Below are positions 5,375-61,653 of a stretch of 64,000 nucleotides of DNA, piece by piece. Under the pieces are notes generated by a model. The model saw nothing but the letters and a program-made list of their open reading frames with translations, had not been told where the DNA came from and did no database searches. Position 1 is the first letter of the stretch. Each line of letters opens with the position of its first letter. Location: contig JBAZZC010000004.1 of NCBI GenBank assembly GCA_041658985.1, positions 20,221 to 84,220 on the forward strand, in the 5' to 3' direction. The stretch comes from Minisyncoccota bacterium (GTDB taxonomy: Bacteria; Patescibacteriota; Minisyncoccia; Phycocordibacterales; DATDWN01). The translations under genes were made by a program, and so were the position numbers.

Positions 5375-5761
5375 ATGAATATGAACATGAATATAAATAT
5401 GTTAAAAAAAATATCAATACATGTGTTGCTTATAAGTCTGTTTATTCTTCCAGTGTTTGTCTTTGCAGACAATACCTCAATCCCAATTCGTATTACTAAT
5501 CCTTTTAAAGGAGGTGACAGTCTTTCTGAACTTATTACGACAGTGTTGAATAATGTGGTTATGCCAATAGCTGCTGTGGTTGTGGTTATTTGGATTGTTT
5601 GGGCTGGTTTTACATTTGTTATGGCCCAAGGTAATCCTAAAAAAATAGAAGAAGCCCAGCAGAGACTTTTATGGTCTCTTATTGGGGCTGGAATACTACT
5701 TGGAGCAGCTGGTATATCAGCCGTGGTACAAAACACAGTAGGAGCACTTATAGCCCCATAA
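5375..5761 (+). CDS. VirB2/TrbC-like pilin candidate (paralog 2)
   Basis: Signal peptide; VIWIVWAGFTFVMAQGNPKKIEEAQQRLLWSLIGAGILL (helix-loop-helix). Confidence 0.5.
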   Translation: MNMNMNINMLKKISIHVLLISLFILPVFVFADNTSIPIRITNPFKGGDSLSELITTVLNNVVMPIAAVVVVIWIVWAGFTFVMAQGNPKKIEEAQQRLLWSLIGAGILLGAAGISAVVQNTVGALIAP

Positions 5762-5763
5762 AC

Positions 5764-6144
5764 ATGAGAAAATCATACAAAATTCAATATTTAACCTTAC
5801 CTATATTTTTATTTCCCACCTTTGCTTTTGCTGATTTTTCTCTTGGTGTTAATACTCCTAGTAAATTTGGAGATTTTATCATATATCTCAAAAGCATAAC
5901 CGACCTGCTTATTCCTATACTTTCTGCACTTGCTTTTATTGTTTTTTTCTGGGGAGTATCAAAATTTATTCTTAATTCCAACAAACCAGAGGAGATAAAA
6001 AACGGCAGAAATTACATGATGTGGGGGATTTTGGTTTTATTTATCTTACTCACCTTTAAAACCATTATTGGTTTAGTTTCAAATGATTTAGGAATTGGAA
6101 GTAAAACCCCGAATCCAAACAATATATTATTACCAACACCATAA
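5764..6144 (+). CDS. VirB2/TrbC-like pilin candidate (paralog 3). The ORF-track entry 5671..6144 is an upstream over-extension.
   Basis: ATG at 5764 directly follows the stop of the previous gene. N-terminus MRKSYKIQYLTLPIFLFPTFAFA is a signal peptide; FFWGVSKFILNSNKPEE is the loop motif. Confidence 0.5.
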   Translation: MRKSYKIQYLTLPIFLFPTFAFADFSLGVNTPSKFGDFIIYLKSITDLLIPILSALAFIVFFWGVSKFILNSNKPEEIKNGRNYMMWGILVLFILLTFKTIIGLVSNDLGIGSKTPNPNNILLPTP

Positions 6145-7267: not shown

Positions 7268-7281
7268 TCCTAAGAAAAGTT

Positions 7282-7317
7282 AAACCGCGTGCCCTCCTCC
7301 AGGGGGCGCGCGGTTTT
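7282..7317. terminator. bidirectional rho-independent terminator between the pilin array (+) and the GC-rich island genes (-)
   Basis: AAACCGCGTGCCCTCCTCCAGGGGGCGCGCGGTTTTG: GC-rich imperfect hairpin with flanking A/T runs on both sides. Confidence 0.7.
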
Positions 7318-7334
7318 GCGTACAATGTACAGTC

Positions 7335-14734: not shown

Positions 14735-17410
14735 ATGCCACCATTTGGTCATTTTACAACAAAAGCAAAAGAAGCTATCCGAAAAGCCCATGAGCTGGCT
14801 ATTGAACGTGGTCAAAATCACGTTAACTCCCTCCACCTTTTAACTGCTCTTATTTTACAAGAAGAGGGAATTGTCACTTCAATATTAGATAAGTTACAAA
14901 TTGATACAATTCTTTTGACGGACTCTCTTATAGAAGCCATAGAAGGTGCTGATGTCGGACAAACCATTTCTGCTTCATATCAAGTTTATCTTACACCAGA
15001 TTTAGCTTCTGTTATTGAAGCTTCCGTTAAACAAACCCCAGCTCTTCATGATGATTTCGTTTCAACCGAGCATCTTTTTCTAGCCTTAATTGAAGTTCCT
15101 GGTCCTGCCAGGGATTTACTCATAAAATTTAAAATAGAAAAAGATTCAGTTCTTCGTCTTATTGAAGAAATAAGAAATACAAAAACTGCTGATACGGAGA
15201 CACCAAAGAAATTTAAGTCACTTTCAAAATACACAAGAAATCTAACAAAACTTGCTGGGATGAATAAATTAGACCCAGTTATTGGAAGAGAAGATGAAAT
15301 TTCCCGTATCATCCAGATTCTTTCCCGTCGAACAAAAAATAATCCAATCTTAATAGGTGAAGCTGGAGTAGGAAAGACAGCTATAGCTGAAGGTTTGGCC
15401 ATTAGAATATCTATGGGAGAAGTACCGGAGTCTCTCAGAGATAAAGAATTGGTTTCTCTTGATTTAGGTCTTTTAGTGGCAGGAACAAAATATCGTGGGG
15501 AATTTGAAGAAAGGTTAAAAAATATTTTGAAAGAAATAGAAAAATCGGATGGCAAAATCATTTTGTTTGTTGATGAGATACATACAATTGTCGGGGCTGG
15601 TTCGGCCGAGGGGTCATTAGACGCATCAAATATGTTAAAACCAGCTTTAGCACGCGGGGAGTTACGAGCCATTGGAGCAACCACCCTTAAAGAATATCAA
15701 AAACATATTGAAAAAGACCCAGCTCTCTCAAGACGATTTCAACCAGTCTATGTTAATGAACCAGGTATAGAAGATGCTATTACTATTCTTCGAGGATTGA
15801 AGGAAAAATATGAACTTTATCACGGGGTTCGTATAACTGATGAGGCCATAGTCGCTGCTGTTAATCTTTCTAGCAGGTATATTACTGATAGGTTTTTACC
15901 AGATAAGGCTGTTGACCTTATCGATGAATCTGCTTCATATTTAAAAATTGCCTTAGAAAATAAACCAGTAGTGCTTCAGAATGCACATTCGAAAATTATA
16001 AAGCTTCAGATTGAACACGAAGCATTAAAAAAGGAGACAGACATGAAATCAAAGACCCGCTTAAAAGAAATAGAGAAAATTATTGCTGACTTAAAAGAAG
16101 AAACAAGCGAGATTGAATTAAAATGGAACAATGAAAAAGAAACAGTCAATGATATAAAGGCAATCAAAAAACAACTTGAAGAGCTTCGTCGTGAAGCAGA
16201 GATTGCAGAAGCCAAATCTGACCTCTCTTTAGCTGCAGAAATACGGTATGGCAAAATTCCAGCTCTGGAAAAAGATCTAGACAACAAATCAAAGAGATTA
16301 AAAAAACTTCAAAGTTCTCGAAGAATTCTGAAAGAAGAAATTACTGAAAATGATATCGCTACGATTGTGTCAAAGTGGACTGGTATTCCAGTGACAAGAA
16401 TGCTTGAAGAAGAAGCGGATAAATTAAATCGCATGGAAGACGTTTTACAAAAAACAATCGTAGGTCAAAAAGAGGCCGTTCAAAAAATATCCGACACAAT
16501 CAAAAGGAGTCGTGCTGGTATAGCTGACCCTCAGAGACCAATTGGCTCTTTTCTATTCTTGGGTCCAACTGGTGTAGGTAAAACTGAACTGACAAAATCT
16601 TTGGCTCAATTTATGTTTAATGATGAAAAAGCTCTGATTCGTATTGATATGTCTGAGTTTATGGAGAAACACAGTGTCTCAAAAATACTTGGTGCTCCTC
16701 CGGGATATGTTGGACATGAAGAAGGCGGAACAATAACTGAAATGGTACGTCATAGACCATATTCTGTCATATTATTTGATGAAATTGAGAAAGCTCATCC
16801 GGAAGTGTTTAATGTTTTGCTTCAGATTTTAGATAACGGGCGACTGACCGATGCTAAGGGTAGAGTGGTTAATTTTAGAAATACTGTGATTATTCTAACC
16901 TCAAATATTGGTTCGCAGTATATAGATAAAATGGAAAAAATTGGTTTTGCTTTTGAAAAAAGTGAAAAGGCAAGTTACGAGGAAGCTAAATCAAGAGTGA
17001 TGGATGCCTTGAAGGATCATTTTCGACCAGAGTTCCTTAATCGTTTGGATGACGTTATTGTTTTTGATATTTTAAGTCGTGACGCTATCGCTGAAATCGT
17101 AAAAATCCAAGTAGAAATTGTCACAGAAAGATTGGCTCAAAAAGAAATCAGACTAATACTTTCTCCAGCCGTATTGGAACATCTAGCAAAAGAAGGATAC
17201 AGCCCACAATATGGCGCTAGACCATTAAAGCGTCTAATACAGACAAAAATTTTAACACCAATAGCTTCTTTCATGGTTAGTAAAAAAATATCGAAAGGGG
17301 GTTCTATTTCTGTTGATATGAAGGGTACCGAGCTTGTCTTTAGTGTAAAAAAAGGTAAACATGATTCGTTTGTCTCACCGACCTTTGTTAATGATGGTAT
17401 CTTGGCATAG
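14735..17410 (+). CDS. clpB: ATP-dependent chaperone ClpB (two AAA+ modules with long middle coiled-coil)
   Basis: Clp_N repeats. Walker [16 protein letters not shown] and [15 protein letters not shown]. Long M-domain coiled coil around nt 15990-16330. Confidence 0.95.
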
Positions 17411-18991
17411 AATGATTTCTTGTGATAAAGTAATCTGGTTAATAGTATATGCGCCGGTCGGATAGCGGCTATTCCAGGGGACTGTAAATCCCCGGTCCAT
17501 AGGACATCGTTGGTTCGAGTCCAACCCGGCGCACCACGTAGGAAAAGTCAAAGAGTTTTGGTTCGCCTCGCTTCGCTCGGCGACTAATTTGTATTCAATT
17601 TTGGGGGTAAAAACGAATTCCCGATTTCGCAAAATATGGTTCGAGCCGATGTTTTTCAGAAATGTTGGCAATTCGGAAAGATTATTCTCTCCAACCAATT
17701 TCGCGGCTTGATTTAAGGACTTTACGAACTCACGAGCCGGTTCGAGCCAAGACAACCCTTTTTCCTCAAAGTCGGTTATTTTCTCTATTAAAGATATTTT
17801 CTGAGATAACAGACTTTGTTTTTTGGCGGCGTATTCCTCTGTGGATAAGGCGTCCGCTAAATAGATGTCTAACAATTTTTGGAGTTTTGCCTCAACCTGT
17901 GTTACTTGCTCTTTCAAAACGCTGATTTCACTTTGTGCGTCCTCTCTCGCTTTATCCTGTTCGCTATCCAACGCCGCCAAAACTTTCTCGGTGTCTTGGC
18001 TCGACAAAGAAACTTTTTGAAGATAAGAAGTGATTTGTTCGGTTAGTGCTTCTTCTCGGAGATAATGCTTTTCTTGGCAAGGGCCTTTCTTGTGAGTACA
18101 GCGATAATAGTTATGACCCTTTTGTCTTTCGGCAGTGATTGAACAATCGCACGAAGCGCATTTGAGAAGGCCAAGAAAAGCAAAATTATTTTTGTGAGAT
18201 TCCTGTACTTTGCCACGCTTGCTCATCACTTCTTGGCAAGTATCAAAAAGTTTCTTTGAAATTAACGGCTCGTGTTGTCCCTCAAAAATTTCCCCCTTCC
18301 ATTTCATTAGTCCAAGGTAAAAGACGTTTTGTAGATTTTTTTGAATGTTTGCGATAACAAGTGGTTTTCCGAGATTACCACGCAAATCGTGTTCCTTACA
18401 CCAATTTGCGAGAGAGTGAAGCGTAAATGCTCCGGTGGCGTACATTTCAAACAACCTCTTAACTTTCGGCGCTTTCTCGCTATCAATATCAATACCGCGA
18501 GTCTTTGGGTTATTGGTGTAGCCCACCGGAGCCCAGCCGGGCCAAACGCCGTTTCTGATTTTCTGTCGTAGTCCTCGCTTCACATTCTCTCGCAAATTAT
18601 CTACAAAATATTTTGATTGACCAAAAGCAATATTGAGCATGAATAATCCCTGTGGTGTAGGCTCAAACCAGAAGGTGGGAAATTTTAGAGAACGAATCAA
18701 ACCGCGATCTACAAAATGGATAATCTTTCCGCCGTCCACACTATTTCTTGCTAATCTATCGGGGTGCCAAGAAATAATCCCATCTGCTTTTCCTGATTCA
18801 AGAATTGCCAACATTTCTGCGAATTTAATTCGCCCGGGTTCTTTTGCGGTTTTGGCTTCCTGAAAGGAAGCGACAATTTCAAGTTTTTCTTTGGCGGCAT
18901 ACTCTTGCAACTCTACGAGTTGCGCTTCAATACTTAAAACCTGTCGGTCATCTTCTTCAGTAGATTTTCTTGCGTAAAGTATGTATTTCAT
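17375..18991 (-). CDS. large serine recombinase (resolvase/invertase catalytic domain + recombinase domain + zinc ribbon). The C-terminal ~95 codons of the ORF run through IR1 and the tRNA-Tyr antisense and may not be genuine.
   Basis: N-terminal [19 protein letters not shown] (serine recombinase catalytic Ser motif), a ...R...GR... region, and zinc-ribbon CASCDCS...YYRC. Start ATG at 18991. The 3' end of the ORF overlaps IR1-L (17531-17631) and the tRNA. Confidence 0.85.
17451..17536 (+). tRNA. tRNA-Tyr(GTA), type II (copy 1)
   Basis: Acceptor GCGCCGG/CCGGCGC, anticodon stem GGGGA with loop CTGTAAA, long variable arm, T-loop GGTTCGAGTCC, encoded CCA. Its last 6 nt begin IR1. Confidence 0.85.
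17531..17631. repeat. IR1-L: 101-bp perfect inverted repeat (partner 19035-19135), beginning inside the 3' end of tRNA-Tyr
   Basis: Compared base-by-base: 17531-17631 equals the reverse complement of 19035-19135 (101/101). Confidence 0.9.
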
Positions 18992-19007
18992 AAGTTTTAG
19001 AAATTAA

Positions 19008-19035
19008 GGATTAAAAAATTTTCTTCCCCCAAAAT
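19008..19035. repeat. IR3-L: 28-bp perfect inverted repeat (partner 19280-19307), located between the recombinase start codon and IR1-R
   Basis: GGATTAAAAAATTTTCTTCCCCCAAAAT vs reverse complement at 19280-19307. Confidence 0.85.
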
Positions 19036-19135
19036 GCGAAATCGGGAATTCGTTTTTACCCCCAAAATTGAATACAAATTAGTCGCCGAGCGAAGCGAGG
19101 CGAACCAAAACTCTTTGACTTTTCCTACGTGGTGC
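19035..19135. repeat. IR1-R: inverted partner of 17531-17631
   Basis: See IR1-L. Confidence 0.9.
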
Positions 19136-19227
19136 AGTATCCTTGAATTAGTCCGAACGCATTTCGCCGCCTGCGGCGGCGAGGAAGTCCCCCCGCAAAA
19201 ATTCGGAAAGGCGGCGGAGCCGCACCG
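19132..19227. repeat. IR2-L: 96-bp perfect inverted repeat (partner 20132-20227). Overlaps the end of IR1-R by 4 nt.
   Basis: 19132-19227 equals the reverse complement of 20132-20227. Confidence 0.9.
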
Positions 19228-19527
19228 ATCAAAACCGTAAAAGAACCCGGAGAAAAACATCGGCGCGAACCATATTTTAATTTTGGGGGAAGAAAATTTT
19301 TTAATCCATTCAGAACCCTCTAAAATGGCCCCAAATAAGGGCTTTTTTGATTGTTTCGATATGGCTTGACAGAAAGGTTTGGATATGCTATACTTAATGC
19401 AGTAAATTGAAGTAAGTTCTTTATCATTTTTGGTCAGCTTTCTTGCGACACAATAGCTTAGAAACCTTGTTTTTCTTAGTTGCTGTGTCGCAAGAATCCA
19501 ACAACCCACAACCCAAAGGAGACTGAC

Positions 19528-20004
19528 ATGATGACGACGCAACCGCGACTGACCAAGGGGCTGTTCGGGCACGAGTTTCGCTCTGCCAGCACCCTGTTCG
19601 GCATCCGGTGTGGACAGTGTCGCGGTCGCGACTTCGTTCACAACGGCGGCTGGTACAACAGGGACGGCGAGAAACTCGGCTGGGGCGATCTCGCACCGGC
19701 GGACTTCCTGAAGATCTCCAACGAGTTGGAGGATGGTGAGCTCTTCATCATTCTCTACGAGTCGGACTCTTTCTGGAACTTCGTCACCCGCCCGGGCATC
19801 ATCGGCAGCATGGCCGCCGTGAAGCCCGACGTGGAGGCGCCCGGCGTCGACTTCGTAGCGGAGAAATGCTGCTACATCGTCGCCAAGCACCGACTCTACT
19901 ACGTCGACCGGAACGGCTACTCGAAAGAGAAGACGTTCGATCGAGACGGGTTGCAGTTCACGGTGCTGACGCCCGAAGCCGCGAAGCAGCTCATCGCTTC
20001 GTAG
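19528..20004 (+). CDS. hypothetical GC-rich protein carried between the IR2 copies
   Basis: TTGACA-17-TATACT promoter at 19366-19394. 11-bp-stem hairpin in the leader at 19442-19494. SD AAGGAG 8 nt before ATGATG (MMTTQPRL...). No recognisable family. Confidence 0.45.
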   Translation: MMTTQPRLTKGLFGHEFRSASTLFGIRCGQCRGRDFVHNGGWYNRDGEKLGWGDLAPADFLKISNELEDGELFIILYESDSFWNFVTRPGIIGSMAAVKPDVEAPGVDFVAEKCCYIVAKHRLYYVDRNGYSKEKTFDRDGLQFTVLTPEAAKQLIAS

Positions 20005-20131
20005 CTCCGCCCGCCGCCAACCCAAACCAAGTTCGCCACCTCTTGATAAAAGGTGGCTTTCTTTTTGTCTGATTTTTTGATAAAATAAATTCATAATTGA
20101 ATGCCGCCAAAGAAAAACTTGAAATTGTCAG

Positions 20132-20227
20132 CGGTGCGGCTCCGCCGCCTTTCCGAATTTTTGCGGGGGGACTTCCTCGCCGCCGCAGGCGGCGAAATGC
20201 GTTCGGACTAATTCAAGGATACTGCAC
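20132..20227. repeat. IR2-R: inverted partner of 19132-19227. It is immediately preceded (20101-20129) by a 29-bp inverted copy of recombinase-gene codons 31-40 (18872-18900).
   Basis: Direct comparison; see findings. Confidence 0.9.
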
Positions 20228-20348
20228 AAATAACTCCTGCAAGGGAGTTTTTGTATTTTATAAGATTGCACTTGAGTTATATTTATGATATATAAGTAAA
20301 TAGAGTGACGAGTTTAGTAGTAACCAAGTCGTCAAGGGGAAATCACAT

Positions 20349-21620
20349 ATGTCAACAATCCACGAAGAGTTAAAGGCCCGGGGCTTTGTCCAGCAGGAAA
20401 CTGCACCGGTGCAGGTCTTTCATCCAACAACTCACGAGTTGCTGGAGACTTTGTCGCTGAAGAATCTACTCAACAATAGTAGGATTACCTACTATGTCGG
20501 TTTTGACCCGACAGCGGACAGTTTGCACATCGGCCATCTTTTGCCGATCATGGCCATGACTCATCTGCAGAGAGCCGGCCACACGCCGATCGCTATCATT
20601 GGTGGCGGGACCACTATGATTGGTGACCCGAGTGGTAAGACTGAGACAAGGCAAATGCTCTCGAAAGAGGTCATTGCCTCAAACGGACAACGGCTTTTGG
20701 CACAGCTGAAACACTACCTTGACTTCGGTCAGGGCAAGGGATTGTTCGTTAACAATGCTGAGTGGCTTTTGCCACTTAACTACATTGAATTTCTCCGCGA
20801 CATCGGGAAACACTTCCGTGTCAACGAGATGGTTCGTACAACGGCGTACGCAGAACGACTTGCACGTGAGGAAGGATTGTCCTTCATCGAGTTCAACTAC
20901 CAACTGCTTCAAGCGTACGACTTTCTCGTTCTGTACGAAAAGTACGGATGCACGGTGCAGATGGGGGGGGACGACCAGTGGAGTAACATCCTTGCCGGAA
21001 TTGACCTCATCCGGAAGGTCAAACAAGGAAACGCCCACGCCTTGACATTCCCGCTTCTTACCACGGCGAGTGGCAAGAAGATGGGAAAGACCGAATCGGG
21101 GGCCGTTTGGCTTGATTCGGCCAAGACCTCACCCTACGAGTACTACCAGTACTGGATTAACACCGAGGACGGAGATGTTGAAAAGTTCCTGAAACTCTTC
21201 ACCTTTCTGCCCTTGGAGAAAATCACGGAACTGTGTGCTCGTGGAGGTCAACACCTCCGTACCGCCAAAGAAGCCCTTGCCTTTGAGACGACGAAGATCA
21301 CCCATGGCGAGGTAGAGGCAATCAAGGCCCAGAATGTTTCAAGGGAGTTGTTCAGTGGTAAGGGGAGTGAAGCATCTCACCTTCCGAGCACGGCCATCTC
21401 CCAGACCGAAGTGGACAAACTCCGACTCGTTGAAGTTCTTGTTAGGGTGGGCTTAAGCTCTTCAAAGACCGAGGCGGGGAAGCTCATCACTAGTGGTGGG
21501 GTCTATGCCAATGGTGAGAGGGTAATCGACGCCAAAGTCATGCTGTCCGAACTTCTCGTGGACGGCACAGTTCTTTTGCGGAAGGGACAGAAAACCTTTC
21601 ACAAAGTAGTCGTTGGGTAA
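20349..21620 (+). CDS. tyrS: tyrosine--tRNA ligase
   Basis: Class I HIGH motif (DPTADSLHIGHLLPIMAM) and KMSKS-type KMGKT. C-terminal S4-like domain. GC-richer than surrounding AT-rich genes. Confidence 0.95.
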   Translation: MSTIHEELKARGFVQQETAPVQVFHPTTHELLETLSLKNLLNNSRITYYVGFDPTADSLHIGHLLPIMAMTHLQRAGHTPIAIIGGGTTMIGDPSGKTETRQMLSKEVIASNGQRLLAQLKHYLDFGQGKGLFVNNAEWLLPLNYIEFLRDIGKHFRVNEMVRTTAYAERLAREEGLSFIEFNYQLLQAYDFLVLYEKYGCTVQMGGDDQWSNILAGIDLIRKVKQGNAHALTFPLLTTASGKKMGKTESGAVWLDSAKTSPYEYYQYWINTEDGDVEKFLKLFTFLPLEKITELCARGGQHLRTAKEALAFETTKITHGEVEAIKAQNVSRELFSGKGSEASHLPSTAISQTEVDKLRLVEVLVRVGLSSSKTEAGKLITSGGVYANGERVIDAKVMLSELLVDGTVLLRKGQKTFHKVVVG

Positions 21621-21626
21621 CGAAGT

Positions 21627-21712
21627 GGGTAGGTGCCCGAGCGGTCAAAGGGGACTGTCTGTAAAACAGTTGGCCTAGGCCTACAGAGGTTCAAATCCTC
21701 TCCTACCCACCA
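21627..21712 (+). tRNA. tRNA-Tyr(GTA), type II (copy 2), 6 nt after the tyrS stop
   Basis: Acceptor GGGTAGG/CCTACCC, anticodon stem ACTGT with loop CTGTAAA, long variable arm GGCCTAGGCC, T-loop GGTTCAAATCC, encoded CCA. Confidence 0.85.
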
Positions 21713-35515: not shown

Positions 35516-37831
35516 TTACTTATTAATTTTTCCCGCCTCATCGGCGGGTCGCCGAGGAGGCGACTTCTTAAACCCACGTTTCTTTTTTTCTTGAGCAAAA
35601 ATTTCTAATGCACGGGGGAGTTCTATCGTATAAACATCATCTTCTTTTAACGAGCGAAAATCTTTTTGGTGGACAATATATGGTCCAAACATTCCGATAT
35701 TAGCTGTTATCTTTTCTCCAGTATCTGGATGAACACCTAATACTCGGGGAAGTGTAAGATAGGTCAAAGCATCTTGGAGGGTTACGGTAGAGAGATCTTT
35801 TCCTTTTGGAATCGAAGCCATTTTAGGTTTAACGGCTTTAGTTGAACCTTTTCTCCCAGTACCAGAGCGAAGCTCGGTACGGGACTTCGCTTTAGCTCTT
35901 TCTCCCACTTGAACATATGGTCCGTATTTTCCAATCAAAATGTAAATAGGTAATCCGGTTTCTGGGTCTGTTCCGATTGGTTCTTCCTTTTTTATTTCCT
36001 GTCCATCCATAGTCAGTGCTCCCTGACATTCTGGATATTTAGCACAAGACAAGAATTTTCCTCCACGAGAAAGTTTAATTATCATAGGTCCCTGACAGAC
36101 AGGACATTTCATTTTTGCGTCTGCATCACCAAGATTATTTACTTTATCTATTTTGTCTTTGCTTTTTACATCAGCTAAGAATGGTTTATAAAAAGTCTTT
36201 AGGGTTTTTACATATTCTTCTTTTCCGTTGGCGATGAGGTCAAGCTTGTCTTCCATTTCAGCAGTGAAACTATCACTTATATAGTTAGCAAAATTGGCTT
36301 CAAGAAAACTTGAAACCACATCACCAGTATCGGTTGGTACTAGGGCTTTATTTATTTTGTCTACATAACCCCTGTCTTCCAGAGTTCCAATAATAGAAGC
36401 ATATGTACTAGGTCTTCCGATTCCTCTCTTTTCTAATTCTTTAACAAGCCCTGCCTCAGAATATCTTCCTGGAGGTTCGGTTTGTTTTTCTTCGGTTGAA
36501 ACTTTCTTGAGCCCCAATTTCTCACCGACAGAGACTTTTGGTAATTCAACATCATCTCCTCGAGAGGCGGGGTCACCCAAAAGCCACCCAGGAAATTTTA
36601 TTTGTGAACCAGTTATAGAAAAATCTGGCATATCACTACCTTTAACGTTTGTGGTGATTTTTGTGCGTAATGTCATCGCATCCTTCATTTGTGATGATAC
36701 TGTTCGTCTCCAAATTAATTCATAAAGTTTTTTTTGTTCGTCATTTATTCCAGCATGCTCAACATTAAAATGGGTAGGGCGAATAGCTTCGTGGGCTTCC
36801 TGGGCATTTTTGCTTTTTGTCGCAAATTTTCTAATTTGTAAAAATTCTTTTCCGTATTTACTTTCAACAACTTGTGCTATTTGAGCTATAGCCACAGCGC
36901 TTAAATTTGTTGAATCTGTACGCATGTACGTAATATATCCTGCTTCATATAGTTTTTGGGCAATACCCATAGTTCTTGAAGGTGAAAATCCAAGGCGAGA
37001 ACTAGCGGTTTGTTGAAGTGTTGAGGTAATAAAGGGTGCTCTGGGAGATTTCTTTACGTCCATTTCTTTAACATCTTTTACGAACCATTTATTTTCTTTT
37101 CCACCTTTTTCGGCAGTTTCAACAATCTGCTCAACCTCTTTTTTGTCTGTAGGTTCAACCTCGCAGACCACCGTAAATTGACCAGACCCGCCTCCTTGGC
37201 GGGTCGCCGAAGAGGCGACATCTGCCGAGATAACCCAAAAAGCATGAGATTTAAAAGCACGAATTTCCCTTTCTCTCTCCATTATGATTCGGAGAGCGGG
37301 GGACTGAACTCTGCCTGCAGAAAGTCCATATCGAATTTTTTTCCAGATAAGTCCGGATAAATCATATCCAACAAGTCGGTCCAATACACGTCGCGCTTCC
37401 TGTGCTTGTCTCAAATTCTGATCTATGTCTCTGGGATGTTCTAATGCTTCCCGTATTGCTTCTTCTGTAATTTCAACATATGAAACCCTCTTCACTTTCG
37501 ACTTTCGACTTTCGACTTTCGACTTGCCGAAATCATTACCTATGATTTCGGCAATGTGCCAAGCGATAGCTTCACCCTCACGGTCGGGGTCGGTAGCAAG
37601 TAGTATTTCATCTGCCTTTTTTGAAAGAGATTTAATTTCATTAACCACCTTTTCTTTTCCTTTTGATATTTCGTAATGGGGAATAAAACCACCATCTATA
37701 TCAATGGCTTTTTTGTTCGATTTTGGTAAATCACGAATATGACCAACAGAAGCAACAACGGTGTACTCACCATCAAGATATTTTGAAATTGTCTTTGCTT
37801 TTGCTGGAGACTCTACAATAAGTAACTTCAT
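35516..37831 (-). CDS. topA: DNA topoisomerase I
   Basis: Toprim MKLLIVESPAKAKTI, catalytic-Tyr region, C-terminal zinc ribbons (CPVCQGPM...). Contains two in-frame GC-rich palindromic insertions and a 7-bp x4 tandem repeat. Confidence 0.95.
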   Translation of the reverse strand: MKLLIVESPAKAKTISKYLDGEYTVVASVGHIRDLPKSNKKAIDIDGGFIPHYEISKGKEKVVNEIKSLSKKADEILLATDPDREGEAIAWHIAEIIGNDFGKSKVESRKSKVKRVSYVEITEEAIREALEHPRDIDQNLRQAQEARRVLDRLVGYDLSGLIWKKIRYGLSAGRVQSPALRIIMEREREIRAFKSHAFWVISADVASSATRQGGGSGQFTVVCEVEPTDKKEVEQIVETAEKGGKENKWFVKDVKEMDVKKSPRAPFITSTLQQTASSRLGFSPSRTMGIAQKLYEAGYITYMRTDSTNLSAVAIAQIAQVVESKYGKEFLQIRKFATKSKNAQEAHEAIRPTHFNVEHAGINDEQKKLYELIWRRTVSSQMKDAMTLRTKITTNVKGSDMPDFSITGSQIKFPGWLLGDPASRGDDVELPKVSVGEKLGLKKVSTEEKQTEPPGRYSEAGLVKELEKRGIGRPSTYASIIGTLEDRGYVDKINKALVPTDTGDVVSSFLEANFANYISDSFTAEMEDKLDLIANGKEEYVKTLKTFYKPFLADVKSKDKIDKVNNLGDADAKMKCPVCQGPMIIKLSRGGKFLSCAKYPECQGALTMDGQEIKKEEPIGTDPETGLPIYILIGKYGPYVQVGERAKAKSRTELRSGTGRKGSTKAVKPKMASIPKGKDLSTVTLQDALTYLTLPRVLGVHPDTGEKITANIGMFGPYIVHQKDFRSLKEDDVYTIELPRALEIFAQEKKKRGFKKSPPRRPADEAGKINK

Positions 37832-37985: not shown

Positions 37986-38030
37986 TAAAAACGAAATCCG
38001 CCGAGCGCGACGAATCTCGTCGGTCGGCGG
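37986..38030 (-). terminator. rho-independent terminator for the GC-rich gene 38043..38324
   Basis: Minus strand: CCGCCGACCGACGAGATTCGTCGCGCTCGGCGG followed by ATTTCGTTTTT. Confidence 0.65.
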
Positions 38031-38042
38031 GGCTTACCACTT

Positions 38043-43580: not shown

Positions 43581-43972
43581 TTGACTTATCCTATGGTTAT
43601 GCTATACTTAGCCTCGGAACCCTGGGGCGTCGAGTCGGAGAGTTGAGGTTGGCCAAAGGGCCGAGTTTCTCCGCGCGAATGAACGCGCCGGGCTTCCATG
43701 TGGTATACTTAATTCATCGATGGCCGGGCCGCTGCGACGACAATGCAACGACCTGGCAAAGCGGACCAACTCTGGCGGTTGCCAGAAAGGAGGAGTGCCT
43801 ACGCACCCGAGAAGAATGCATTGATACACCCCGCCAAGGGAAGTCCAGTGCAGGTCCTCGGGCTAGAACACACCAAGCTCTTTTATGGCCCGCGGTGGCC
43901 TAGAGCCACCGCGGGTTACCATAACGCCCTTGGACGTAAGACGCAGATTTGCGCAGTCGTAGGGCGTTTTTT
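43581..43972 (+). ncRNA. GC-rich putative structured RNA 1 (~360 nt), identity unknown
   Basis: TTGACT-16-TATACT promoter at 43581-43608. Strongly GC-rich body with no SD or coherent ORF. 3' stem ACGCCCT...AGGGCGT + TTTTTT at 43925-43972. Confidence 0.45.
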
Positions 43973-59794: not shown

Positions 59795-60964
59795 ATGACT
59801 CCTTTAGCTGTAAAAATTAGACCTACAAATCTCGATGATTTTGTTGGCCAGAAACATCTAGTGGGCGAAGGAAAGCCCCTACGTGTTGCCATAGAAAAGA
59901 AACATCTCTTTTCCTTTATCTTATGGGGTCCTCCTGGAGTGGGTAAAACCACTTTGGCTAGAATTTATGCCAAAGCTATTAATGCCGATTTTTACGAACT
60001 TTCGGCTGTTTCTGCCGGGAAAGATGATATAAGAAAGATATTGGTTTCAGAGAAAGAAAAAACAAAAGTTTTGTTTCTTGATGAGATTCATCGTTTTAAT
60101 AAATCACAACAGGATTTTCTTTTACCCTTTGTTGAGTCCGGTGAGATGCTTCTTGTCGGTGCTACAACAGAAAATCCGAGTTTTGAGGTTATTTCGCCTC
60201 TCCTTTCACGTTGTAGGATTTTTGTTTTAAATGATTTTTCTCCCGAAGAAATGGGGGAGATTCTTGATCGAGTACAAACCGCCTCTTCGGCGGTCCGCCG
60301 AGGAGGCGGAAAAGAAGCCAAAATAAAAATAGATAAAGAGTCAAAAGGGTGGCTTATTAGAATGGCCAACGGTGATGCTAGGCAAGCCATATCGCTTTTG
60401 GAAGCCACCATTGGTTTGTATGGAAAAATTAGTGTTGAAAATTTGAAACAAGCCCTACAATCAAAATTTTTAAGGTACGATAAGGTTGGTGATGAGCATT
60501 ACAATACTATAAGCGCCTTTATTAAAAGTATGCGTGCTAGTCAGCCTGATGCTGCGCTCTATTATATGTGCAGAATGATTGATGCTGGTGAGGACCCAAA
60601 ATTTATTGCTCGTCGTATGGTGGTTTTTGCCAGTGAGGATATTGGCCTTGCTCAGCCAACGGCTCTTGTTGTAGCTAATGCTGTTTTTCGGGCCGTGGAA
60701 ACTATAGGATTGCCTGAATGTGCCGAGAATTTGGCACACGGGGTTGTCTATTTAGCGCAGGCCAAAAAAGACCGTTCAGCTTACAATGCTTACTTGGAGG
60801 CCATGGAAGATGTAAAAAAATATGGTAACCTCCTTATACCTTTAAAAATAAGAAACGCCCCAACTAAGCTCATGAAGGATTTGGATTACGGAAAAGGCTA
60901 TGAGCAATATACCAAAGAGGATTTATTACCAGAAAAGTTAAAGAACAAAAAATACTTAAAATAA
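59795..60964 (+). CDS. rarA: replication-associated recombination protein A (MgsA/RarA AAA+ ATPase)
   Basis: LWGPPGVGKTTLARIYA, sensor motifs, C-terminal MgsA-specific helical domain. Contains the in-frame GC-rich palindrome at 60279-60309. Confidence 0.9.
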   Translation: MTPLAVKIRPTNLDDFVGQKHLVGEGKPLRVAIEKKHLFSFILWGPPGVGKTTLARIYAKAINADFYELSAVSAGKDDIRKILVSEKEKTKVLFLDEIHRFNKSQQDFLLPFVESGEMLLVGATTENPSFEVISPLLSRCRIFVLNDFSPEEMGEILDRVQTASSAVRRGGGKEAKIKIDKESKGWLIRMANGDARQAISLLEATIGLYGKISVENLKQALQSKFLRYDKVGDEHYNTISAFIKSMRASQPDAALYYMCRMIDAGEDPKFIARRMVVFASEDIGLAQPTALVVANAVFRAVETIGLPECAENLAHGVVYLAQAKKDRSAYNAYLEAMEDVKKYGNLLIPLKIRNAPTKLMKDLDYGKGYEQYTKEDLLPEKLKNKKYLK

Positions 60965-61026
60965 TTTATATTGTTGACAAAAAGGCTGTAGCTGATAATC
61001 TAATTTTGGAGCGGGAAGGAGTTTAC

Positions 61027-61275
61027 ATGCCAAAAACAAGTATGAAGGACGACAAGCCTTTCCACGAGTCCATTGTGGATGCGATTGGAGAAGCATCAAG
61101 CACTGACCTTCACTGTCTCGGTCGTCTGATCAAGGCGACAGCCATCCCAAAGGGTCATGACCAGATTCTTACAGCGTGGGAGGGACATGCCAGGCCAATC
61201 CTGGGTTCTATGGACCTCGGGGTCCCGGAAGCGCTTCGTCTTAAGAAGCGACGAGCCGAACGTGGCGACGGCTAA
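61027..61275 (+). CDS. GC-rich small hypothetical protein (~82 aa)
   Basis: SD GGAAGGAG before ATG at 61027. Terminator hairpin at 61288-61325. Confidence 0.4.
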   Translation: MPKTSMKDDKPFHESIVDAIGEASSTDLHCLGRLIKATAIPKGHDQILTAWEGHARPILGSMDLGVPEALRLKKRRAERGDG

Positions 61276-61351: not shown

Positions 61352-61653
61352 ATCCGCACACTAACTCTCATTTCGTTATGTTTTATGTATATGTGATCAA
61401 AAGTAAAAAGTTTGATAATCTATACATTGGTTCTACTAATAGTCTTAGAGAAAGACTCATAAAACATAACAAAGGACTAGTTAAATCAACAAAAAAGAAT
61501 AAACCATATGTGCTAATATATTATGAAGCGTATAAGATAGAATCAGATGCGCGAAGGAGGGAAAAAATGTTAAAATATAGAGGTCAAGCAAGAAATCAAT
61601 TAAAATTAAGAATAAAAGACACACTAGCGCAAAATGAGAGTTAGTGTGCGGAT
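61352..61653. mobile_element. family A TIR element (22-bp TIR ATCCGCACACTAACTCTCATTT) carrying a GIY-YIG nuclease gene
   Basis: Left TIR 61352-61373. Right TIR 61632-61653 is an exact reverse complement. The GIY-YIG stop codon lies inside the right TIR. Confidence 0.65.
61378..61644 (+). CDS. GIY-YIG nuclease family protein (URI domain, ~88 aa)
   Basis: MFYVYVIKSKKFDNLYIGSTNSLRERLIKHN gives the GIY...YIG motifs, plus a conserved Arg and Glu downstream. Confidence 0.8.
   Translation: MFYVYVIKSKKFDNLYIGSTNSLRERLIKHNKGLVKSTKKNKPYVLIYYEAYKIESDARRREKMLKYRGQARNQLKLRIKDTLAQNES

Follow-up and report, generated by a model that had tools for sequence, protein, structure and literature searches.

Several described systems resemble a GC-rich palindromic element that occurs three times in the 64-kb stretch of DNA analysed here (part of contig JBAZZC010000004.1 of a Minisyncoccota bacterium, hereafter the window), twice within topA and once within rarA. 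The Ssn proteins are single-domain GIY-YIG nucleases that cut single-stranded DNA (ssDNA) beside their own flanking hairpin repeats, in an NTS-ssnA-NTS layout that resembles an insertion sequence (Chenal et al. 2025, PMC11893778). Repetitive extragenic palindromes (REPs) carrying GTAG or CGTC tags have been catalogued, some of them within replication and repair genes (Di Nocera et al., PMC3733652), and are presumed to be non-autonomous elements served by a dedicated enzyme for ssDNA hairpins, the REP-associated tyrosine transposase (RAYT). Rickettsia palindromic elements (RPEs), which measure 100-150 bp and are found in Rickettsia only, are selfish palindromes of a small AT-rich genome that insert in frame into protein and RNA genes and are presumably translated in surface loops. 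The GC clusters of yeast mitochondria are mobile GC-rich palindromes of about 30-50 bp that have entered AT-rich DNA, including var1, in frame, and rRNA genes. SegB is a multi-domain phage protein of ~220 aa that is not known to be accompanied by a hairpin repeat family or by a duplicated 5' part of a tRNA, whereas the proteins linked to the element described here are single-domain and of 85-92 aa. SegB itself is a free-standing GIY-YIG homing endonuclease of the T4 tRNA gene cluster that cuts tRNA-gene DNA and promotes the inheritance of its own gene and of the flanking DNA (PMC2330249).

The explanation that we favor, with a probability of about 0.6, is that the three window sequences are solitary copies, themselves non-autonomous, of a miniature selfish element found widely among bacteria of the candidate phyla radiation (CPR, or Patescibacteria) and that belongs to a mobile system composed of a hairpin and a GIY-YIG nuclease. 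As in the Ssn systems, a single-domain GIY-YIG gene of ~90-100 aa lies beside a short, GC-rich, oriented hairpin repeat that is scattered genome-wide, and different protein subfamilies go with different hairpins. However, the CPR element is a double hairpin found on the upstream side of the gene only, a tRNA following downstream, whereas Ssn repeats flank both sides; the hosts are CPR bacteria, and many copies lie inside genes. When we searched with the SRM motif, HGTCWYN(0-2)YYVSBRHN(0-5)WNVSBRGN(0-2)RNCYNB, which matched NTS as a positive control, we obtained no match among 122 copies (with 25 nt on each side) and none in the window. With REPs the element shares the form of a GC-rich, multi-copy palindrome of 20-40 nt, possibly a partial GTAG-like tag at one end and, in the case of some REPs, an intragenic position. 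Unlike a REP, it is made up of two fused hairpins, is intragenic far more often (~45% of copies), targets tRNA D-loops and is linked to a GIY-YIG gene; no RAYT was seen, though Y1 transposases were not systematically screened. The yeast GC clusters differ in being organellar, in having no known dedicated nuclease gene and in their unrelated sequence. A preliminary description of this DNA had likened the three copies to RPEs, and the likeness stands insofar as a multi-copy palindrome has been inserted in frame into essential genes, at sites that are empty in orthologs, and has left the frame open; the copies are nonetheless not RPEs, from which they are set apart by their length (32-33 nt) and by their hosts (many CPR classes). 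On our best reading, the CPR element is closest in logic to Ssn/NTS and REP/RAYT and is RPE-like in behavior, while being neither an RPE nor an SRM.

The three sequences proved to lie inside topA and rarA, within long open reading frames (ORFs), and to encode the peptides that the preliminary description had given for them (the full span of the third is listed in Table 1). Copy 1 is read as SPPRRPADEAG (TopA residues 757-767, in the Lys-rich C-terminal tail), copy 2 as VASSATRQGGG (TopA residues 205-215, at the tip of a beta-hairpin) and copy 3 as TASSAVRRGGG (RarA residues 162-172); the predicted junction peptides of a translated element are ..ADVASSATRQGGGSG.. or ..QTASSAVRRGGGKE... Every copy is a local GC spike in AT-rich coding DNA, against a background of 36-40% GC. 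The pattern GCCTCNTNGGCGGNNCGCCGANGAGGC has three matches in the window, which are precisely the three copies, and matched none of 100 dinucleotide-preserving shuffles (three copies observed against zero expected). No further or decayed copies and no half-elements (single half-hairpins) were found in the window when up to 8 mismatches were allowed. The fold energies of the copies range from -22 to -29 kcal/mol, with z scores of -3.5 to -6.3 relative to shuffled controls, and a search of the window with Rfam at the gathering threshold returned tRNAs only, the element corresponding to no known RNA family.

Judged against their close orthologs, the three window sequences are insertions. In rarA, all 119 of the closest orthologs (72-89% identity) are without the copy, reading ..ILDRTK-KEAKIKIDKESK.. 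where the window reads ..ILDRVQTASSAVRRGGGKEAKIKIDKESK..; at the DNA level, the empty sites (loci L203 and L204) read ..ACAAAAAAAGAA.., and the window gene differs from them by a 31-nt GC core within an A-run together with two extra bases 4 nt upstream, a net gain of 33 nt. At the end of topA, copy 1 is in none of the 70 closest orthologs whose tails we inspected. These finish in ..KRGF[KR]KK.. and a stop codon, and the window TopA is alone among them in having the terminal sequence KK-SPPRRPADEAG-KINK; copy 1 is also missing at the syntenic loci L118 and L119. The DNA of this tail fits equally well a 33-nt insert or a 32-nt insert after AAG with the last few codons frameshifted, in which case the protein would previously have ended in ..GFKKKN. 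TopA orthologs are mostly 725-755 aa long, and the window TopA is 100% identical to a protein from a metagenome-assembled genome (MAG) of Ca. Paceibacterota. Window proteins in general match that MAG at 100%, and the nearest relatives of the window are Zambryskibacteria.

The peptide of the internal topA copy, VASSATRQGGG, is present in 5 of 120 TopA orthologs (P0001, P0005, P0015, P0024 and P0045), which are scattered on a neighbor-joining tree built without resampling support. In the four alleles with readable DNA, the element follows the same Asp codon with identical junctions and takes the place of an ancestral loop (consensus about ESLKKV), for a net gain of 18 nt. Comparison of these alleles suggests that this insert looks like one event spread by descent or recombination, not like repeated clean insertion. 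The view that all three copies are 11-residue in-frame insertions is borne out as far as the frame is concerned, but not every insert is a clean 33 nt, given the net +18 nt in topA and the 31-nt core plus 2 nt in rarA. Relative to the TopA proteins of E. coli and mycobacteria and to E. coli MgsA, the insert regions are variable loops of similar length; the insertions are revealed only by close orthologs. In AlphaFold models the RarA insert occupies the end of helix 150-163 and the coil 164-180 (predicted local distance difference test score, pLDDT, <50 at residues 167-173), the internal TopA insert the tip of a beta-hairpin with strands 197-207 and 218-223 (pLDDT <50 at 211-215), and the C-terminal TopA insert a disordered tail (pLDDT <50); the mapping onto structural models proposed at the outset thus placed the copies in a low-confidence loop, at a hairpin tip and in a disordered tail.

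Other short inserts, unrelated to the 33-mer, are found at these three places, the loop and the tail of TopA and the loop of RarA, in other Paceibacteria (orthologs P0011, P0016, P0027, P0030, P0032, P0043, P0054, P0057 and P0059, and further P0151, P0155, P0158, P0165, P0167 and P0178). They include QPLEASSGRMT / QPPKASGGRMT, PMSDIGE, NLTEV.PR and RQSSGQEGI, some of which back-translate to palindromes, and suggest that there are several families of translated hairpin repeats. In addition, the 'empty' sister of a filled TopA allele (L201, protein P0046) carries GTATCTGCATCGTCC (VSASS), which is similar to what the element has as its first half, GTCGCCTCATCGGCG (VASSA); to judge by this resemblance, its loop may be a decayed, half-deleted copy.

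To define the structure of the element we analyzed covariation among 83 distinct copies, numbered on the strand that reads GTCGCC, with 500 shuffles as a control. Two adjacent hairpins of 5-6 bp, in which columns 1-6 pair with 12-17 and columns 18-22 with 28-32 around the pentaloops TCNTC and GANGA (the form GTCGCCTCATCGGCGACCCGCCGAAGAGGCGGG), account for 45 doubly changed but still-paired cells in 6 pairs, a number that none of the 500 shuffles reached. A single long hairpin has 2 compensatory cells, a number reached by 222 of the 500 shuffles, and was rejected. The hairpin of the preliminary description therefore survives as a stably folding sequence, but the selected fold is a pair of small hairpins side by side. 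Positions 1, 17 and 33 co-vary (G-C-G, A-T-A, C-G-C or T-A-T), the loop centers (positions 9 and 25) are free to vary, and variant stems with the same loops are rare in loci selected by the element. Furthermore, G-T wobbles (15) are about as frequent as A-C mismatches (17), so that no strand is favored, which fits a constraint at the level of DNA.

For 119 non-redundant copies the consensus reads CCCGCCTCNTCGGCGGGTCGCCGANGAGGCGAC. There is almost no variation at positions 1-33, and A/T predominates in the flanks, where the four element-adjacent positions are A or T in 83-93% of cases compared with an A+T content of 58% across the loci. On the GTCGCC strand the element is preceded by g (49%), T (60%) and A (78%) and itself begins with G (88%), which is partly a signal of the tRNA D-loop flank. 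The inserted unit, as far as can be told from filled and empty sites, appears to be 32 nt long: comparison of filled tRNA fragments with adjacent intact tRNAs gives a net insert of 32 nt in three loci (L008, L067 and L115), with one base common to both ends, and a nested copy in L185 has the same length. A unit of 32 nt would explain why copies at the C-terminus are common, why the internal topA insert amounts to +18 nt (32 minus 14) and why rarA has one or two extra bases; internal copies would persist only with a frame-restoring indel, and C-terminal ones would be tolerated unchanged. In L185 (about 430-557) a complete 32-nt variant, TCGCCTCATCGGCGAGTAACCGAAGAGGTTAC, lies inside the first loop of another copy, and upstream of the GIY-YIG ORF in L135, L156, L124 and L127 there are extra hairpins nested in loops or between both hairpins. 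Nested copies, tandem units and A/T flanks are signs of mobility.

The repeat extends far beyond the window. In a scan of GTDB with one genome per species (copy numbers are lower bounds and taxon labels are as deposited), the 33-mer was found at at least 117 loci in at least 73 other assemblies, nearly all of them labeled Patescibacteria/CPR and drawn from many classes. Among the matches listed there are at least 22 assemblies of Saccharibacteria, lineages of Parcubacteria/Paceibacteria (Zambryski-, Taylor-, Nealson- and Moranii-), Gottesman-, Roizman-, Doudna- and Falkowbacteria, and 'Patescibacteria group' labels, as well as at least 14 assemblies with non-CPR labels. In the same set, eleven 'Gammaproteobacteria' labels and one 'Bdellovibrionales' label, all of third-party-annotation MAGs, look doubtful. 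The copy on a 'Woesearchaeota' contig, RIFOXYB1_FULL_31_12 (L050), has 25-nt flanks identical to those on a Zambryskibacteria contig (L078), so that the former is probably a mis-binned CPR contig; both copies lie within a TrmD ORF, and the two ORFs are of equal length (265 aa). A viral carrier was sought among 2.9 million viral contigs, with no match. We found no description of the element in the literature on palindromic repeats of CPR/Patescibacteria, on GIY-YIG proteins with tRNA or on the sequence itself, for which the only match was a chance 13-mer in a paper on a Klebsiella plasmid.

Among the matches listed, ~45% of copies lie within long open frames. Twenty such element-bearing ORFs were tested, and 19 of them are conserved housekeeping genes; the genes identified are GyrA, GyrB, CTP synthase/PyrG (two), TrmD (three), MurB, dihydroorotate dehydrogenase, HisRS, Fmt, Pth, TatD, an EndoIII-like glycosylase, an ABC transporter, an NAD(P)HX dehydratase, a carbamoyltransferase, two S-adenosylmethionine methyltransferases and DUF2207. 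About one quarter of the copies in tested genes are at the extreme C-terminus. In 19 of the 20 genes it is the GTCGCC strand that codes, as it also does in topA. The mixed orientations that the preliminary description had reported were therefore not upheld: both topA copies point the same way, and the rarA copy is symmetric. (Replication strand was considered as a cause of this orientation and rejected: the GTCGCC strand is the more G-rich of the two in 50 of 70 loci, a link that is weaker than that with gene orientation and confounded with it, and the GC skew is positive throughout the window, in which topA lies on the minus strand.)

Many of the remaining observations concern an association with tRNA genes and with a GIY-YIG gene. 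Many flanks of the element resemble tRNA D-arms; these are duplicated 5' tRNA fragments in which it stands after ..GGTA. Twelve loci share one arrangement: tRNA positions 1 to about 21, the element, tRNA positions 22-26, a spacer, a GIY-YIG ORF of 85-92 aa and an intact tRNA. An interrupted tRNA, with the element as an intron or D-loop insertion, was rejected: after excision of the element in 15 boundary variants, ARAGORN predicted no tRNA that spanned the cut and four that abutted it. Within the loci selected by the element, 14 of 20 GIY-YIG ORFs lie no more than 30 bp from it. Two loci (L097 and L115) have tandem units, each consisting of the element, tRNA positions 22-26, a short flank and tRNA positions 1-21, before an intact tRNA and with no GIY-YIG ORF.

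The linked GIY-YIG proteins form one subfamily (50-73% identity, motif FFK[ST]GYGREVLK), to which other GIY-YIG proteins, including that of the window, are 25-50% identical. Above the curated cut-off, Pfam gives GIY-YIG and the related, overlapping T5orf172 and nothing else; because of this and of their length, the linked proteins are single-domain. A separate DNA-binding domain could not be accommodated in a protein of that length, and the insertion falls at one fixed position of the tRNA D-loop, where the 5' tRNA part is duplicated. The nearest solved structures are those of the UPF0213 proteins BH0048 and EF2693, followed by SLX1, and the named members of the subfamily are all from CPR bacteria and annotated only as GIY-YIG nuclease or hypothetical protein.

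As an independent test of linkage we took 80 metagenome loci picked by the protein subfamily alone and scored the element, at no more than 5 mismatches, in the 200 nt upstream. Upstream DNA was long enough in 73 loci, of which 43 contained the element; its orientation never varied, and in all but one case it lay 6-45 nt from the ORF. In 67 of 75 loci a tRNA on the same strand began no more than 150 nt beyond the ORF; most of these are tRNA-Gln (CTG or TTG), the others being Gly, Pro, Tyr, Ser and Ile. Where examined, other GIY-YIG subfamilies adjoin other double hairpins, which suggests cognate pairs of nuclease and hairpin. In L049 (about 5490-6130) and in L074, CCCCGC-CGCA-GCGGGG followed by TCCCGC-TATA-GCGGGA stands at the same tRNA-like D-loop position by a second GIY-YIG subfamily.

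In the hairpin and GIY-YIG system that we propose, the autonomous form would likely be a cassette lodged in tRNA genes, usually that for tRNA-Gln, encoding the GIY-YIG nuclease of about 88 aa. Like the Ssn nucleases with their NTS/SRM hairpins, the enzyme would recognize the double hairpin in ssDNA and nick beside it, and repair or strand transfer would then copy the hairpin module to A/T-flanked sites (consensus gTA/G, the slash marking the junction). The cassette itself would enter GGTA/G of tRNA D-loops, bringing a replacement 5' tRNA part; its layout, A-E-B...A-B, would also be compatible with homing or with Campbell-type recombination via the tRNA 5' part, and the tandem units would match repeated insertion at a regenerated site. 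Because the unit is GC-rich and almost stop-free in all frames, copies in surface loops or C-terminal tails of essential genes could survive and be translated into 11 residues, most of which are small, flexible or charged (Ala, Ser, Thr, Gly, Arg, Pro, Asp and Glu).

A number of points weigh against this proposal. The role of the GIY-YIG nuclease in mobility is taken from its linkage to the element, and the action of the enzyme and transposition itself are a proposal; to our knowledge GIY-YIG nucleases are hydrolytic and none is a transposase. The SRM motif is unmatched in all 122 copies, and the element stands on one side of the gene only. Among loci with a cognate GIY-YIG gene, 41% have no element at up to 5 mismatches, although many of these hold nested or variant hairpins and some hold different double hairpins. 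The window has no cognate GIY-YIG gene, and its own GIY-YIG gene has no 33-nt element next to it. The identical junctions of the internal topA element in four lineages are fitted better by shared descent or recombination than by repeated transposition. Finally, the near-identity of copies across CPR classes could reflect a host function.

The alternative that survives best, although we consider it unlikely, is that the hairpin is mobile but is moved by another agent, either a tyrosine transposase of the IS200/IS605 type (RAYT-like) or recombination and gene conversion, with the cassette only carrying or using the hairpin as a landing pad or an expression signal. The gTA that precedes the element on the GTCGCC strand would give a GTAG-like tag such as REPs have (PMC3733652), the strand-specific orientation resembles the behavior of IS200/IS605, the internal topA allele with its identical junctions in scattered lineages suggests spread by recombination, and solo units of tRNA fragment and element occur without any ORF. 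Against this, no transposase gene was seen beside the copies (no systematic Y1 screen was made), the position and orientation of the element upstream of one GIY-YIG subfamily are fixed in the 43 of 73 independently picked loci that have it, and the different hairpins at the same place by other GIY-YIG subfamilies look like cognate pairing.

Less probable still, and in our estimation quite improbable, is that the 33-mer is a DNA signal selected by the host (an uptake or recombination signal, or the site of a conserved CPR protein), comparable to the uptake sequences found in genes of Neisseria and Haemophilus. Uptake sequences occur roughly once per kb, a density with which three copies in 64 kb compare poorly. 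CPR bacteria carry competence genes, dprA adjoins topA in the window, the sequence is nearly invariant across deeply diverged CPR classes, and compensatory changes preserve the hairpins even within an ORF (L202), all of which would suit such a signal. Likewise, the NTS/SsnA pair of Neisseria modulates natural transformation (PMC11893778). However, close orthologs carry the element in a patchy, lineage-specific manner; selfish repeats typically show the nesting and the tandem units observed here, and the nuclease gene to which the element is tightly linked has itself inserted into tRNA genes.

We regard as very improbable a role at the level of RNA, in which the transcribed pair of hairpins would stabilize, terminate or process the transcript, or would be removed or bypassed before translation: the common coding strand, the position of the element in the 5' leader of the GIY-YIG ORF, the stability of the predicted RNA hairpins and the GC-rich inserts that ribosomes bypass in a yeast mitochondrion speak for it, but wobble pairs show no strand asymmetry, the hairpins and loops of the RNA would be nearly identical in either orientation, both internal copies in the window are stop-free with net gains of 18 and 33 nt, multiples of three as translation predicts, and neither is followed by a terminator-like T-run.

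The window contains other features that stand apart from the element (Table 1). Its GIY-YIG gene lies between perfect 20-bp inverted repeats, the second of which overlaps the stop codon, and the whole resembles a very small cassette with inverted repeats at its ends. Between rarA and this gene there is a GC-rich ORF of 89 aa without a Pfam match, followed by a strong terminator-like hairpin. A GC-rich stretch (46-48% compared with ~36%), bracketed by two tRNA-Tyr genes, comprises the gene for a large serine recombinase, an ORF without a Pfam match between 49-bp inverted repeats and the gene for TyrRS, and may be an element integrated at tRNA-Tyr. Three GC-rich hairpins, perfect or nearly so, are unrelated to the 33-mer; the first, which lies between convergent ORFs, is probably a terminator, and the last is in a GC-rich stretch without a match in Pfam or Rfam.

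Table 1. Coordinates of the element copies, their host genes and other features in the 64-kb window.
Feature	Position	Strand	Remarks
Element copy 1	35532..35564	-	Canonical; minus (topA coding) strand is GTCGCCTCCTCGGCGACCCGCCGATGAGGCGGG
Element copy 2	37187..37219	-	1 mismatch to the consensus; minus strand is GTCGCCTCTTCGGCGACCCGCCAAGGAGGCGGG
Element copy 3	60278..60310	Orientation not callable	Symmetric variant ACCGCCTCTTCGGCGGTCCGCCGAGGAGGCGGA
topA, type IA DNA topoisomerase, 771 aa	35516..37831	-	Holds copies 1 and 2
rarA/mgsA, replication-associated recombination protein A, 389 aa	59795..60964	+	Holds copy 3
GIY-YIG gene, single-domain, 88 aa	61378..61644	+	Other subfamily, 37-50% identity to the linked one
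Inverted repeat, first arm	61352-61371		atccgcacactaactctcat
Inverted repeat, second arm	61634-61653		Complement of the first arm
Cassette-like unit	61352-61653		Includes the GIY-YIG gene
89-aa ORF	61006-61275
GC-rich stretch	17375-21712
Large serine recombinase	17375-18991	-
tRNA-Tyr	17451-17536
49-bp inverted repeats	19151-19199 and 20160-20208
TyrRS	20349-21620
tRNA-Tyr	21627-21712
GC-rich hairpin	7281-7321		Intergenic
GC-rich hairpin	37998-38034		Intergenic
GC-rich hairpin	43884-43920
GC-rich stretch	43.6-44.3 kb		Contains the preceding hairpin

Taken to its full extent, our proposal would describe a new class of mobile element, in which a minimal GIY-YIG enzyme reads a 32-nt two-hairpin ssDNA, homes to GGTA/G of the tRNA D-loop while rebuilding the tRNA, moves across the CPR radiation and sheds solo copies that are translated in essential proteins; we put this forward tentatively, as a possibility that falls short of even odds. 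If the enzyme does cut ssDNA at the double hairpin, it would offer a new specificity for ssDNA tools. In CPR genomes the inserts make sequences seem more divergent than they are and can disrupt gene calling and alignment, and the near-identical 33-mer could be used to flag mis-binned contigs, the 'Woesearchaeota' one being an example. The recently discovered pairing of single-domain GIY-YIG nucleases with hairpin repeats of their own may extend to a hairpin of new design, with tRNA D-loops as a new kind of target, in a further group of hosts. For the CPR/Patescibacteria, whose genomes are small, streamlined and poorly understood, the findings would amount to a concrete mobile-element system, one through which essential proteins, among them TopA, RarA, GyrA, GyrB, PyrG and TrmD, would carry translated selfish DNA.

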